Positions 49,524 to 62,647 of a stretch of 64,000 nucleotides of DNA are shown piece after piece. This DNA is from a bacterium (GTDB lineage Bacteria; JAAXHH01). The position numbers were made by a program, and so were the translations under genes. The stretch is from NCBI GenBank assembly GCA_963693015.1, contig OY843748.1:3200395-3264394 (forward strand), in the 5' to 3' direction. The notes under the pieces are model-generated. The model was not told where the DNA came from and searched no databases. It saw only the letters and a program-made list of their open reading frames with translations. The first letter of the stretch is position 1. Every line of letters begins with the position of its first letter.

Positions 49524-50594
49524 ATGGAGTATTTCGTGTCCAATAAGAAGAGATGCCTGATGATCGGCGGAGGCGGGATGGCCGGCGCATGGATACGCCG
49601 TTTCTATCCCCCGTTCCATGACCGCCACGAGATCGTCGCCCTGGTGGACATCAACGCGGAGACACTCCGCGACGCGGGGGACTTTCTCGGCCTGCCCCGC
49701 AGCCGGAGGTATACGGACATGGAGACCGCCTTCGGGGAGGTGGAAGCGGACTACTGCACGGTCGTCATTCCCCCCGCCGTGCACCGGGACGCCGTTTTGC
49801 TGGCGGTGGAGAGGAAACTGGACATATTGAGCGAAAAACCGATTGCCGACACGTGGCCCGCGTGCGTAGATATATACAGGGCGGTCACGGAGGCCGGCCT
49901 GAAGATGCACGTGATACAGAACTACCGCTATTCCAGCCGCATGCTGACCATGCGGAAGGTGTTGCGGGACGGAGAACTCGGGCGAATCAACTACATCCAG
50001 GGGCGTTTTGCCGCGGACTACCGCGAATACGGCGCCTGGGGCGCTTTCCGCCATGAAATACCGCATACCCTGCTCGTGGAAGGCGCCGTGCATCACTTTG
50101 ACATGATGCGGAATCTGTCGGGGGGAGACTGCAGGACGATCGCCGGATGGGAGTGGAACCGGCCGTGGAGCAGTTTCCAGGGGGACTGTTGCGCCATGTA
50201 CGTGATGGACATGACCAACGGGGTGAAGGCGGCCTACGAGGGCTCCTGCCTGGGCGCCGCCGAGCAGAACAGCTGGCACGGGGAATCCTACCGGGCGGAA
50301 TGCGAGGATGGAGCCGTCGCCATTGGAAACGACAACGTGACGCGTATTTACCGGCACGCGCCGGGCAACGGGGTTCGGACCGAAGAAGTACGACCCGTCG
50401 TACCGGAATACGACGGTCATCAGTGGCAGATCAACGAATTTTTGGAATGGCTCGATGGGGGGCCAGCGCCCGATACCTGCCTGGAACGCAACATCCGGAG
50501 CGTGGCCATGGTCTTCGCCGCCATCGAAGCTTCGAGAACGGGGACCGCCGTCGACGTGGAGAATATGGTTGAACCAGTCGTAAACGCCGCCTGA
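49524..50594 (+). CDS. Gfo/Idh/MocA-family oxidoreductase
   Basis: N-terminal Rossmann LMIGGGGMAGAW and a C-terminal alpha/beta domain. Confidence 0.8.
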   Translation: MEYFVSNKKRCLMIGGGGMAGAWIRRFYPPFHDRHEIVALVDINAETLRDAGDFLGLPRSRRYTDMETAFGEVEADYCTVVIPPAVHRDAVLLAVERKLDILSEKPIADTWPACVDIYRAVTEAGLKMHVIQNYRYSSRMLTMRKVLRDGELGRINYIQGRFAADYREYGAWGAFRHEIPHTLLVEGAVHHFDMMRNLSGGDCRTIAGWEWNRPWSSFQGDCCAMYVMDMTNGVKAAYEGSCLGAAEQNSWHGESYRAECEDGAVAIGNDNVTRIYRHAPGNGVRTEEVRPVVPEYDGHQWQINEFLEWLDGGPAPDTCLERNIRSVAMVFAAIEASRTGTAVDVENMVEPVVNAA

Positions 50595-50670
50595 GAATCA
50601 GGTGGCCGGCGACGCCTGGAAGGTACCGATGGCCGGCGCCGCCTGAGAGAGGAGTAGGTTACCAGGACTT

Positions 50671-51897
50671 ATGCCGAATCTGAAAATCCCATTTATCGAC
50701 GCTTTCCTGAGGTTGCAATCCTCCAGCGGCATCCTGCTGATGCTGGCCACCGCACTGGCGATGGTATTCGCGAACTCCTTTCTCGAACCACTCTACCACT
50801 ACTTGCTGGAAATCCCCATCCAGATCCACATCGCCGCGCTGGACATCAACAAACCGCTGCTGCTCTGGATCAACGACGGCCTGATGACCATCTTCTTCTT
50901 CCTCGTGGGCCTTGAGTTGAAGCGCGAGTTCCTCGAGGGAGAGCTTTCCAACCGCCGGAACATCATCCTGCCCGGTGTCGGCGCCATCGGCGGCATGGTG
51001 ATCCCCGCGCTGATCTATCTGGTCTTAAACAGCGACGACCCCTCCACCTGGCGGGGCTGGGCCGTTCCGGTCGCAACGGACATCGCCTTCACCCTGGGCG
51101 TGCTGACCCTCCTCGGTACGCGCGTGCCCATCTCGATCAAGGTCTTTCTGACCTCGCTGGCCATCCTGGACGACATCGGGGCGATCGTGATCATCGCGGT
51201 GTTCTACACGGCGGAAATATCGGTGACGGCCCTGCTGGTGGCCGCGGGCTGCGTGCTTGTGCTGGTCTTTCTCAACAACCGGAACTGGGTCTCCCACAGT
51301 TCCTACATGATGGTCGGCGTAGTCCTGTGGATCGCCCTGTTGAAATCCGGAGTGCACGCGACGCTGGCCGGCGTGATCCTGGCCGCATTCATCCCCATGC
51401 GGTCCAGGACCGATCCCGACGTCTCGCCGCTCAAGGTCCTGGAGCACGATCTGCATACCGTCGTGGCCTTCGTCATCCTCCCGGTGTTCGCTTTCGCCAA
51501 CGCCGGGATCAATTTCGAGGGCATTACGGCCGAACAGGTATTTCACGGTGTCCCGGTCGGGGTGGCGCTGGGGTTGTTTCTGGGTAAGCAGATCGGCATT
51601 TTCGGCCTCTGCTGGCTCTCTATCAGATTCAAGCTGGCCAGCCTGCCCACCGGCATGTCCTGGTCTGGTCTCTACGGCGCCAGCGCCTTGTGCGGCATCG
51701 GGTTTACCATGAGCCTCTTCATCGGTTCGCTCGCTTTTGGCGACACCGATATGCACGGGATGTTCGACGAACGGCTGGGCATCATCGTGGGATCGCTGCT
51801 GTCGGGCGTGCTGGGCTACGTCGTCCTGCGATACAGCCTGCCGCCTGCGGAGGAAAAGGTCGAGCCTGTCGAGGCCGAAGTGGAGCGGGTGGTTTGA
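50671..51897 (+). CDS. nhaA: Na+/H+ antiporter NhaA
   Basis: NhaA-type sequence throughout (WINDGLMTIFFFLVGLELKRE, DIGAIVII). Confidence 0.92.
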   Translation: MPNLKIPFIDAFLRLQSSSGILLMLATALAMVFANSFLEPLYHYLLEIPIQIHIAALDINKPLLLWINDGLMTIFFFLVGLELKREFLEGELSNRRNIILPGVGAIGGMVIPALIYLVLNSDDPSTWRGWAVPVATDIAFTLGVLTLLGTRVPISIKVFLTSLAILDDIGAIVIIAVFYTAEISVTALLVAAGCVLVLVFLNNRNWVSHSSYMMVGVVLWIALLKSGVHATLAGVILAAFIPMRSRTDPDVSPLKVLEHDLHTVVAFVILPVFAFANAGINFEGITAEQVFHGVPVGVALGLFLGKQIGIFGLCWLSIRFKLASLPTGMSWSGLYGASALCGIGFTMSLFIGSLAFGDTDMHGMFDERLGIIVGSLLSGVLGYVVLRYSLPPAEEKVEPVEAEVERVV

Positions 51898-56884: not shown

Positions 56885-58039
56885 CTACGCCGCATCCAGC
56901 GCCTGACCCAGGTCGGCGATGATGTCGCCGGGATCTTCGAGTCCCACCGAAACACGCGCCCCAAAGCCCTTGTCCGCATCCTCGCCCGAGGGCAGGATCA
57001 GCGTCTCCACGTCGCCCAGGCTGTACCAAGGCTTACACATCTTTAGATTTCCAATAAAACGGTCGAGCGAAACGCCGGGACGGGCGTAAAAGCGCATCAT
57101 TCCGCCATAGCCTCGAAGGTATCCGCTCGCGACCTCGTGTTGGGGATGGGATTGCAATCCGAGATAGTGCACGCGGCCAACTTTTTCGTGTTGTTCCAGG
57201 TATTCGGCCACCTGCTGAGCGCTGGCGCAGTGCCGTTCCATCCGGAATGCCAGGGTCTTGAGGCCCCTGTGCACGAGGAAGGCGTTCATGGGCGCCAGGA
57301 CGCCGCCCATGAGAATCCGCATGTGGTGGATCTGTTTCCGAATCTCTTCGTCGCGGCCGCAGACGATACCGGCCAGCGCGTCGCCGTGTCCGGCCATGTA
57401 CTTGGTCATGGCGTGCAGAACGATGTCGGCGCCGTAGTGAAGGGGCCGAAGCAGGTAGGGAGACAGAAAGGTGTTGTCGACCACGACCAGGGCGCCGGCT
57501 TCATGGGCCATCTCGGTAGCGCGGGCCAGGTCGATGAACTCCATGGAATGGGCGTATGGTTCGAAATAGACCATCCGGGTGGGTTTCTCCAGCGCTTTCT
57601 CCAGGGCGTCCAGGTCGCACAGGTTGACCAGTTCGACGTCCACGCCCCATTTCACCGGCAGCACGTCCTGGAACAGCATGTGGGTACCGGCGTAAACGGT
57701 CTCGTGGCAGACCACCCGGTCGCCGCTCCGAAGCAACCCGAACAACGTCTGGCTGACCGCCGACATGCCGCACGAGGTCGCCTGCGCCCACTCCGCACCT
57801 TCCAGGATCCTCACCTGTTCTTCGAGCGCTCCGCTGGTGGGGCCGCCCGCCCTGTCCAGGCCCCGGCCGTAGGAGTTCGTCCCTTCGTATCCCTCACGGT
57901 AGTTGGTATTCCCCTGGTAGATCGGCACCGCGGATGAGGTGCCGTGGTACCCACCGTGGATCGCGTCGGTGGTAAAGTCCCTGTTTTCGGCCGACTGGTA
58001 GTCATCGGCTGCGAAACGGAGGTCGTGGTCGTTGGACAT
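56885..58039 (-). CDS. PLP-dependent Cys/Met-metabolism enzyme (cystathionine gamma-synthase/beta-lyase / methionine gamma-lyase family)
   Basis: Conserved PLP-lysine region (HAMTKYMAGHGD) and family-wide similarity. Confidence 0.88.
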   Translation of the reverse strand: MSNDHDLRFAADDYQSAENRDFTTDAIHGGYHGTSSAVPIYQGNTNYREGYEGTNSYGRGLDRAGGPTSGALEEQVRILEGAEWAQATSCGMSAVSQTLFGLLRSGDRVVCHETVYAGTHMLFQDVLPVKWGVDVELVNLCDLDALEKALEKPTRMVYFEPYAHSMEFIDLARATEMAHEAGALVVVDNTFLSPYLLRPLHYGADIVLHAMTKYMAGHGDALAGIVCGRDEEIRKQIHHMRILMGGVLAPMNAFLVHRGLKTLAFRMERHCASAQQVAEYLEQHEKVGRVHYLGLQSHPQHEVASGYLRGYGGMMRFYARPGVSLDRFIGNLKMCKPWYSLGDVETLILPSGEDADKGFGARVSVGLEDPGDIIADLGQALDAA

Positions 58040-60280: not shown

Positions 60281-60460
60281 GCGCCCTTGTCGATAATGCT
60301 CTGGTCATCTTGTTTTTGAGAAAAACTGAACGTTTTCCCTCTCGTATTCCTTGACGTATACTAAACATAAATTTAGTATATGAAATTATGCGAATGGATT
60401 CCGGAACGGAGAAACGGGATTCCGCCAGCCATAGCGACACCGCTACGAGAGGAGCATCGA

Positions 60461-61387
60461 ATGTTCACCGCTTACACGGGGAACAGCCACTATTGCTATA
60501 GCAACAGCCTTCACATGTGTCTGAAGCAGGCCGGTATGGTGAATCTACCGGATGCCGGTCTGCTGGAATGCATGACGGGTCAGCCGTTCGGTACCCTTTT
60601 CCTGCAGTTTGAAACGCCTCTGTTCTTCTCAAGCCACGCCAACCTCAATCCACACAGCGGGCTGTCCCGCGCTCTGAGCATCCTGGGCTGGAACTGTACC
60701 TTATGGCAGGGTGACGATGCCCAATCTGCCCTTGATGCATTGAAGGAATCCCTGAAGAAGGGTCCCGTACTGCTTGGCCCCCTGGATCTGGGTTTCCTTC
60801 CCTATGATCCGAATCACGCGCTGAAACGCGGGGGAGACCATTTCATTGTGGTCCTGAAATTCGACGGCGAACGCGTACAAGTACATGACCCGCAGTTCTA
60901 TCCTTTCGCGGTACTGCCGGTCGATGATCTCATGCGCGCATGGTGTGCCACTGACCTCGGCTATGCGACTTGCGCATACACGCTACGTGGTGATTTCCGA
61001 GAAGAGCGGCAAGTGTCGACCGATGACATGCTGAAGGATACCCTGGAAAACGCACGGGAACTGATCCATGCGACGCCTACCGGTCCGGTCTTTTTTGGAG
61101 GATCGAAGGCGTTCCGTCTGGCCGCCGAGGTGATCCACAATCGCCCGTCGCAAGCTTTCGCGGGGATGCTGGTCCATTTCGTCCTTCCGATAGGCGCACG
61201 GCGCTGCCTGGATGCGGCTGACTTCATGAAGTCGGTAGGCCAAACGCAAGCTGCGGAGTGGATGGTGAAGAAAGCCGAATCGTATGGCTTGGCGCAGTAC
61301 TTTGCCACGCAGGAAGATTGGAAAGGTACGGAGGCGTTATTCAAGGAACTGGCGGAGATTGAAGAGAGGATCGTGGAGTGTGTGTAG
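60461..61387 (+). CDS. BtrH_N/DUF4872-like protein (papain/C39-like fold)
   Basis: Start MFTAYTGNSHYCYSNSLHMCLKQAGM resembles the BtrH N-terminal domain with a candidate catalytic Cys. The track ORF is open from 60380. Confidence 0.55.
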   Translation: MFTAYTGNSHYCYSNSLHMCLKQAGMVNLPDAGLLECMTGQPFGTLFLQFETPLFFSSHANLNPHSGLSRALSILGWNCTLWQGDDAQSALDALKESLKKGPVLLGPLDLGFLPYDPNHALKRGGDHFIVVLKFDGERVQVHDPQFYPFAVLPVDDLMRAWCATDLGYATCAYTLRGDFREERQVSTDDMLKDTLENARELIHATPTGPVFFGGSKAFRLAAEVIHNRPSQAFAGMLVHFVLPIGARRCLDAADFMKSVGQTQAAEWMVKKAESYGLAQYFATQEDWKGTEALFKELAEIEERIVECV

Positions 61388-61451
61388 CTGAGGCGTTACT
61401 GGAATCGTCTAAATCCGGTAAGCACCCATTTATACTAATCAGGATCGGAAC

Positions 61452-61871
61452 ATGAAGATCAACCATCTTTCCATTACGACGAAAAACCCGGAACGGGTCG
61501 CCACCATTTTGGCCGAGTTGACCGACGGTACTACGAGCCCCTTTCCATCCAAGACCATGGAAGGGGCATGGATGTGCGTGTGGGATAAGCAGGCTGGTGA
61601 ATTGATCGAGGTGATTCCAGACCGGTATCTGCTCTGTCCCGGCAAGTACGCCGCGGAATACCGGTTGCTCGACGTCGAGCAGAACTTCAACTCAACGCAT
61701 TTCCAACTTGAAACAGAGCAAAGCCTCGACCACCTGAAAGCAGTGGCGGAAAAACACGAACTCTACCACCGCTTTCGGCCGAGGCTAGGCGGACCGCTCT
61801 ATGAAGTATGGATTGAACCCCAGATCCTGGTCGAATTCGTCTCCGACGAGATCAGAAACCTCGAGCCCTGA
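61452..61871 (+). CDS. VOC/glyoxalase-like small protein (tentative)
   Basis: 139 aa. MKINHLSITTKNPERVATILAEL resembles the first beta-alpha-beta-beta-beta module of VOC proteins. Confidence 0.4.
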   Translation: MKINHLSITTKNPERVATILAELTDGTTSPFPSKTMEGAWMCVWDKQAGELIEVIPDRYLLCPGKYAAEYRLLDVEQNFNSTHFQLETEQSLDHLKAVAEKHELYHRFRPRLGGPLYEVWIEPQILVEFVSDEIRNLEP

Positions 61872-61904: not shown

Positions 61905-62480
61905 TCACCCCCCAATCATCCCCAGGATCTCTACCAGGTGGTCGGTCGACGGTCGGTCGAAGGGATCCGAACCCACGTACTTGAACCGAAGCACGCCTTC
62001 CTTGTCGATGATGAAGGCGGTGGGGATGACTTCGGTCCCCTTGTCGGTCGTTTTCTCGATCTTGAACTTCGTGGGTATGGCTCGATCCGGGTCGGCGAGT
62101 ACGGGGAAGGAAAGCGCCTCCCGCGTGACTTTCGACTTGGCGACGAAATCCTGGGTCTGTTCCAGATCTTCAGGATTGATGAAGAGGAGTTCCGTGTCGA
62201 GTGCCGCTATACGTTCGTAGTCGGATTGCAACTGCCCCAGTTGCCGTAAGCAAAGGGGTCACCAGTAGCCGATCCAGCCGCGGTCGACGACCACCAGCAG
62301 GTTCTTGCTGCCCTTGTAATCGGCGAAGTTGACGGTCTCGCCGTTCACGTCCTGCAGGCTGTACTCCGGTGCGGGCTGACCTACCCTCGGAGCCAGGTTT
62401 CGGGGTTGCGCATCGGCGGTTTCCGCCACCAGGCCGACCAGCGCCAGGGCGAAGCACCACCGCGCCAGTACGCGTACCAT
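61905..62480 (-). CDS. TlpA/ResA-like periplasmic thiol-disulfide oxidoreductase (redoxin family), putative selenoprotein with in-frame UGA (minus-strand codon at 62261-62259) replacing the first Cys of WCxxC
   Basis: Two track ORFs (62259-62480 and 61905-62231) are in the same frame, separated only by a TGA: ...LLVVVDRGWIGYW-[UGA]-PLCLRQLGQLQSDYERIAALD... The combined 191-aa product has a signal peptide and a full redoxin fold (PVLADPD..., FIIDKEGVL...). Confidence 0.6.
62228..62244 (-). promoter_or_regulatory. SECIS-like hairpin 14 nt downstream of the in-frame UGA (GCAACUG-GGG-CAGUUGC)
   Basis: Perfect 7-bp inverted repeat on the mRNA strand starting 14 nt after the UGA. This is the position expected for a bacterial SECIS element. 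Confidence 0.4.
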
Positions 62481-62647
62481 AGTCTCCCTCCTCGTTTTGG
62501 AAGTCGTCCTTCCCGTTTCATGGCAATTCGCTTGCGTTTTGTCCCTTTTAATATAACCTACCCCGGTACGCCTGTTAACTTCATTTTTAATGTCTTGTTT
62601 CTGTCATACTTTGATCACGTAACGAGATTCCAAGGAGCCGCCTCCCC

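Follow-up and report, generated by a model that had tools for sequence, protein, structure and literature searches.

Selenoproteins of the UxxC redoxin and Prx-like kinds have been on record since 2005-2008, and published lists already include UxxC Prx-like, redoxin, DsbA-like, DsbG-like and thiol:disulfide-interchange families (PMC13188914, Table 1; PMC2398784, Table 2). The Sargasso Sea and GOS selenoproteomes, like a 2026 review, contain UxxC entries with the Pfam domains PF00578 and PF08534, under the names 'Prx-like thiol:disulfide oxidoreductase', 'Prx-like 1/3', 'Redoxin family protein' and 'thiol-disulfide isomerase-like' (PMC13188914; PMC2398784). Selenocysteine (Sec) families that are typically periplasmic are listed as well: DsbA-like, DsbG-like and thiol:disulfide interchange protein (PMC13188914; PMC2398784). 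An initial annotation of the gene described here, which lies in a 64-kb window (the whole stretch of bacterial DNA that we analysed), held that a secreted, Sec-containing redoxin would be notable. That assessment was overstated, given that UxxC families, including typically periplasmic ones, were already on these lists (PMC13188914, PMC2398784). An exported Sec redoxin is not surprising in itself, because the kind is already known.

We compared the locus with the closest of these systems. It shares its Pfam domains with the UxxC selenoproteins 'Prx-like 1' (PF00578, WP_010940744.1) and 'Redoxin family'/'Prx-like 3' (PF08534). As in those proteins, U takes the place of the catalytic Cys in UxxC and a hairpin follows just after the UGA; mis-annotation as fragments, to which the present gene is also subject, is typical of the class. 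What distinguishes the present clade, in a comparison with the published representatives by domain and motif only, is a motif of its own, RGW[IV]GYW-U-P[LH]C...DRP, and the nearest database relatives that are not orthologues share no more than ~50% identity with it. The ResA/TlpA/StoA proteins (B. subtilis ResA, PDB 1st9, 3c71) carry a W-C-x-x-C motif and a cis-Pro 'PT' that align with the redoxin, and an N-terminal export or anchor signal is found in all of them. The likeness to ResA is confined to fold and motif; sequence identity is low (E about 1e-7 to 1e-10), and the redoxin would carry Sec where ResA has Cys. Similarly, the NCBIfam ResA model (NF002854) gives the redoxin 49.4 bits, against a cut-off of 170. 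The best NCBIfam model, NF040769 (SelL-related redox protein), matches the N-terminal two thirds of the protein, active site included, with 63.1 bits, about half its cut-off of 120; since the score is below the cut-off, the redoxin is not a member of NF040769 by the NCBI criterion. The related proteins encoded at loci L032, L033, L035 and L048 also fall below this cut-off, and no NCBIfam model reaches its cut-off for the redoxin.

The gene appears in the window as two minus-strand ORFs in one frame, a 73-aa ORF with an ATG start (62259..62480) and a 108-aa ORF called from TTG (61905..62231). The TGA at the end of the first ORF is the sole stop between that ATG and the terminal TGA (Table 1). 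Translation through it yields a product of 191 aa that contains ...VVVDRGWIGYW*PLCLRQLGQLQ..., with the full order MVRVLARWCFALALVGLVAETADA↓QPRNLAPRVGQPAPEYSLQDVNGETVNFADYKGSKNLLVVVDRGWIGYW-U-PLCLRQLGQLQ... (the arrow marks the predicted cleavage site). This bears out the initial annotation, in which the two ORFs were described as in-frame and parted by a TGA alone. The same annotation anticipated that gene calling would split the gene, and this is what we found throughout a search of 5.8 billion predicted proteins: each of 28 close homologues (68-93% identity) is recorded as a C-terminal fragment of 108-109 aa, and no source gives these fragments a name.

Table 1. Features of the redoxin gene, in window coordinates.
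Feature	Position	Strand	Basis or detail
Complete selenoprotein gene (proposed)	61905..62480	-	191 codons + terminal TGA stop 61905-61907; translation, Pfam, full-length conservation in 22 loci
Shine-Dalgarno-like GAGGAGGG, 5' of ATG start 62478-62480	62486..62493	-	Sequence; AGGAGG core invariant in alignment A1
Predicted Sec-type signal peptide MVRVLARWCFALALVGLVAETADA↓Q	62409..62480	-	Read from sequence; predicted
In-frame TGA, proposed selenocysteine codon (codon 74)	62259..62261	-	TGA in 28/28 distinct orthologous sequences
Redox motif U-P-L-C (UxxC), GYW directly before	62250..62261	-	Aligned with ResA WC(E/P)PC
bSECIS-like hairpin GCAACUG-GGG-CAGUUGC	62228..62244	-	14-nt spacer after UGA, 7-bp stem, G-rich triloop
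Block invariant in nucleotides save one variable site	62226..62267	-	Gene nt 214-255; covers UGA, spacer, hairpin
Pro153 codon (I-P-T), thioredoxin-fold cis-proline position	62022..62024	-	Aligned to ResA/3kcm (L/I)PT; invariant in alignment A2

With Cys substituted for U, the read-through protein matches the Pfam families AhpC-TSA (8.6e-25, 87.5 bits; cut-off 26) and Redoxin (4.5e-20, 72.4 bits; cut-off 26.6). Among solved structures it is closest to 3kcm, from the thioredoxin family, then to ResA and StoA, and then to BCP-type peroxiredoxins. The U at codon 74 aligns with the first Cys of W-C-x-x-C in 3kcm and ResA (3c71, 2h1b, 4nmu); in the printed alignments, its I-P-T lines up with the cis-Pro motif of 3kcm/ResA, and Pro153 is presumably in the cis conformation. 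Relatives with Cys at the U position include YICPLC (P0237) and DWCPFC (P0203), as well as the WATWCGPC/WCEPC forms at loci L036, L038 and L040. The placement of U at the catalytic Cys, as first proposed, therefore holds against both ResA and the Cys-containing relatives, in which it aligns with the N-terminal Cys of WCxxC.

Peroxiredoxins carry a Thr or Ser three residues ahead of the peroxidatic Cys (PxxxTxxC/U). In the redoxin, that position is occupied by Gly (G-Y-W-U), and because Gly stands where the peroxiredoxin-type Thr/Ser would be, we interpret the protein as a thiol-disulfide oxidoreductase of the CxxC type and not as a peroxidase. Peroxiredoxin genes with an in-frame TGA at the peroxidatic position (AFYVLAFTGG-U-TKE) came to light on unrelated metagenome contigs (L049, L081, L085, L090 and L105); these are classic Sec-Prx genes.

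The N-terminus resembles a signal peptide, with a basic N-region, a hydrophobic core and an AxA-like site (xDA↓Q) before a conserved Gln. The pattern is kept among the orthologues (xDA↓Q, ANA↓Q, VFA↓Q, AEA↓Q), and dN/dS is higher in the signal region. These features suggest that the redoxin is exported to the periplasm. Inspection of the neighbourhood revealed neither cytochrome-c maturation genes nor others with an obvious link to it.

We found that the pair of 73-aa and 108-aa ORFs recurs in every locus examined, and that in the homologues' loci the pair adjoins the same divergently transcribed AP_endonuc_2 gene. The 22 species-representative loci come from MAGs titled Candidatus Latescibacterota, Gemmatimonadetes/Gemmatimonadota or 'bacterium', many of them chromosomes of 3.5-4.0 Mb. 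In a scan with one genome per species, codon 74 was a stop in 22/22 loci, and across 28 distinct DNA sequences (the 22 loci plus other assemblies) that stop was always TGA. None of these sequences has TGC or TGT at this codon, which in close relatives, together with other disabling mutations in this copy, would have counted against the initial annotation; no Cys-form orthologue turned up at identities of 48% or more. One MAG carries the redoxin locus on two contigs, with an identical protein (L028 and L029; CBDEKM010000011.1 and CBDEKM010000021.1), reflecting either a real duplication or assembly redundancy.

Coding constraint extends to both sides of the TGA. By pairwise Nei-Gojobori estimates, the mature N-terminal part has dN/dS values of 0.05-0.26 and the C-terminal part 0.13-0.24; dS reaches >1 in comparisons with L005, the orthologue that has diverged furthest. 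Both halves of the gene are under purifying selection. Since dN/dS is low on either side of the stop, both 'fragments' are maintained as parts of a single coding sequence; the proposed test of dN/dS across the UGA (about 0.05-0.26 overall) thus has both halves evolving as coding sequence.

A TGA at the same position is also found in distant homologues at loci L032-L035, L048, L050, L065, L078, L096 and L102. In a metagenome scan, L032-L034 (48-52% identity) carried the clade motif in the form RGW[IV]GYW-U-P[LH]C, while L035 and the remaining loci have related xW-U-[PT]YC or V-U-GLC motifs. The variants include FYRGxW-U-PYC in L048, L050, L096 and L102, YW-U-TYC in L065 and YV-U-GLC in L078. 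An exhaustive search with the 117 residues after the UGA returned 313 relatives, and many of the top ones are ~100-110 aa long and start ~9-12 residues into the query. By length and starting point, such relatives look like the signature of further Sec-split genes.

A further line of evidence is the hairpin downstream of the UGA, which lies inside the coding sequence and encodes Q-L-G-Q-L. Its apical loop starts 21 nt after the UGA. The bSECISearch model reportedly expects the apical loop 16-37 nt after the UGA, and with a loop start at 21 nt the hairpin lies within that range. Eight open-frame TGAs in the 64-kb window are followed by such a hairpin, and the redoxin TGA alone among them stands in a coding, redox-motif context; coding-score and hairpin scans of the window revealed no second convincing selenoprotein candidate. 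A scan for SECIS-like structures also returned a perfect-looking 9-bp hairpin, GCCGCCTGA-GAA-TCAGGTGGC, at ~50586-50606 on the plus strand, at the end of the ORF 49524-50594 and before an antiporter gene. It has no plausible Sec context and is probably a transcription terminator or regulatory hairpin.

Synonymous variation in the 28 sequences is strongly depressed over the element. Outside it, 87.5% of degenerate codons vary synonymously, compared with 1/11 among codons 75-85 (binomial ~9e-9, phylogeny not corrected for). Codons 76-85 show no nucleotide variation at all and form the longest fully invariant run in the gene (permutation p < 1e-5), with invariant runs at gene nt 214-224 and 226-255. 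In all, a stretch of ~33 nt after the UGA is depleted of synonymous change.

With no variation in the element among the orthologues, covariation was sought in more distant relatives. Among six distinct, divergent sequences sharing the codon register, the helix was paired in 100% of cells, with compensatory double changes at 3/7 pairs: two went from G-C to C-G and one from A-U to G-C. Sliding the 3' partners by 1-3 columns left only 12-52% of cells paired, and RNAalifold predicted the same helix independently. The TGA homologues at ~30-52% identity keep the hairpin with the same 14-nt spacing and a G-containing triloop (GGG, GGA, GGC or AGU); in the xW-U-PYC group, the corresponding helix is longer, displaced by one nucleotide and capped by GGC or GGA. 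A compact SECIS-like element with a 14-nt spacer, a 7-bp stem and a GGN triloop, encoding xQL-G-(Q/E)L, may be common to several related UxxC subfamilies. The 7-bp stem noticed at the outset 14 nt past the UGA is conserved as that exact hairpin, with compensatory changes, in distant TGA homologues; far from being lost in the orthologues, it is invariant there and covaries further out.

In the structural check suggested by the initial annotation, the hairpin alone folds at -8.8 kcal/mol (z = -2.2), with 2/200 shuffles folding as well. In longer stretches, the minimum-free-energy fold differs from the hairpin and overall z-scores are unremarkable. An alternative structure at 62213-62260 on the minus strand (ACCCC.UUGCU-UAC-GGCAA..GGGG), which includes the UGA and competes with the SECIS hairpin, is favoured in silico. 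We rejected this fold, with its CCCC/GGGG stem around the UGA, as it is not conserved in the distant homologues: 63% of cells paired, no better than shuffles. Rfam gave no match at the gathering threshold, and none over 62150-62300 at E <= 10; this negative carries little weight, in our judgement, because short bacterial SECIS elements are poorly covered.

The fdhF-type bacterial SECIS of E. coli is a SelB-binding element. The present hairpin is like it in being a stem-loop in the coding sequence shortly 3' of the UGA, with G in the apical loop. It is shorter and simpler than the fdhF element, having a perfect 7-bp stem, a 3-nt GGN loop and no evident bulged U. By analogy, we propose that it too may bind SelB.

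Taken together, these results indicate that the UGA very probably encodes Sec in a 191-aa exported AhpC-TSA/Redoxin thioredoxin-fold oxidoreductase, presumably through a SelA/SelB/SelD/tRNA-Sec system. The UGA would be read by Sec-tRNA(Sec), delivered by SelB, which the hairpin would recruit; Sec would thereby replace the N-terminal nucleophilic Cys of W-C-x-x-C, giving GYW-U-PLC. The product would be exported by the Sec secretion pathway, with cleavage of the signal peptide. Its U/C pair would then cycle between a selenenylsulfide and a reduced selenol/thiol, and may serve to reduce disulfides or other oxidised periplasmic substrates.

By tblastn and ARAGORN, none of the decoding genes selA, selB, selD and tRNA-Sec was found in the 64-kb window or, for the first 30 loci, in the ~20 kb surrounding the gene, a search that covered ~84 kb of a ~3.8-Mb genome (<3%) and is uninformative on absence. 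The tblastn queries were E. coli SelA, SelB and SelD sequences, of which SelA is identical to PDB 8uzw; in a protein-database search with E. coli SelA, the best 120 matches were all enterobacterial.

A global reassignment of TGA was considered and rejected. TGA ends Pfam-verified APH and Na+/H+ antiporter genes as well as the redoxin gene itself, and seven verified genes contain 0 in-frame TGA codons. With TGA an ordinary stop in the neighbours and none in-frame in the verified genes, it follows that the codon is not globally reassigned.

Several features of the neighbourhood were noted in passing. Between the Na+/H+ antiporter gene (50671-51897) and a Cys_Met_Meta_PP gene (56885-58039), the segment 52026-56266 holds three ORFs, of 735 aa (weak DNA-methylase and DUF1156 matches), 353 aa (no Pfam match) and 353 aa (DUF4238). 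It looks like a ~5-kb insertion, since the flanking genes are adjacent in L001, L002 and L004, and may be a restriction-modification or defence islet. Gene content immediately downstream of the redoxin gene also varies between genomes (60380-61871 in the window, 10799-11521 in L001, 2401-3953 in L007). A methyltransferase gene lies there in L001-L004 and L006; the window has a 139-aa ORF without a family match and a 335-aa protein that resembles BtrH_N, and L007 is similar, with two of 117 and 308 aa.

The alternative that survives best, although we consider it improbable, is that the UGA is recoded, but not as Sec: near-cognate read-through by a Trp or Cys tRNA, stimulated by the hairpin, or some other recoding in a lineage without Sec machinery. 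This reading draws on the lack of Sec genes in the ~84 kb that could be read, and on one distant homologue, P0197, that is recorded with W at the U position (GFW-W-PLC). The W in that protein (TYRGWVGFW-W-PLC) could stem from TGG, or from a TGA that the gene caller of the source read with genetic code 4. Trp is hard to reconcile with the position, which is that of the catalytic Cys of CxxC, where Trp would abolish function. Moreover, the same arrangement occurs in several related TGA subfamilies from unrelated metagenomes.

Less credible again, and in our view very unlikely, is a locus with two products, a secreted 73-aa peptide that ends at the UGA and a cytoplasmic 108-aa protein that begins at the TTG. 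Gene callers do consistently give both ORFs, but the division would run through a single thioredoxin-fold domain, exactly at its active site, and the TTG sits in the 3' arm of the hairpin without a properly spaced Shine-Dalgarno sequence. The nine codons from the TGA to the TTG (PLCLRQLGQ) include the one for the resolving Cys and show coding conservation, and in distant homologues the called fragments start at differing residues. As for a pseudogene, in which a nonsense mutation or sequencing error fell by chance on the active-site codon, the stop codon itself is all that speaks for it, and it can be set aside: the TGA is invariant in 28 sequences and 22 loci, several on long chromosome-scale contigs, no other disabling mutations are present, dN/dS is far below 1 on either side, and divergence (dS 0.3 to >1) excludes assembly duplicates of one genome. 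We conclude that what is called as two ORFs is almost certainly a single, intact gene whose product is an exported thiol-disulfide redox enzyme with Sec in place of the catalytic Cys.

This conclusion leaves the general knowledge of selenoproteins unchanged, because UxxC redoxins are among the commonest predicted classes of bacterial selenoprotein. The redoxin would be an ordinary bacterial selenoprotein, a further UxxC Prx-like/redoxin, whose subfamily status is possibly new. More tentatively, and with some doubt, the clade might represent an undescribed, exclusively Sec-containing subfamily of exported redoxins, fixed in uncultured MAGs with Latescibacterota/Gemmatimonadota labels and using a compact SECIS common to related UxxC subfamilies. 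If so, the shared compact hairpin would help to recognise further genes of this kind by sequence. The hairpin also offers a clean case of an RNA element that constrains synonymous sites within a coding region, and the reading corrects a systematic mis-annotation, as the gene stands as two unnamed fragments in every related assembly on record. Literature searches on selenocysteine use by Latescibacterota, Gemmatimonadota or sponge symbionts brought up no relevant work. For the organisms themselves, our results imply, short of proof, that an uncultured lineage with genomes of ~3.5-4 Mb and Latescibacterota/Gemmatimonadota labels decodes Sec and possesses a periplasmic selenoenzyme.
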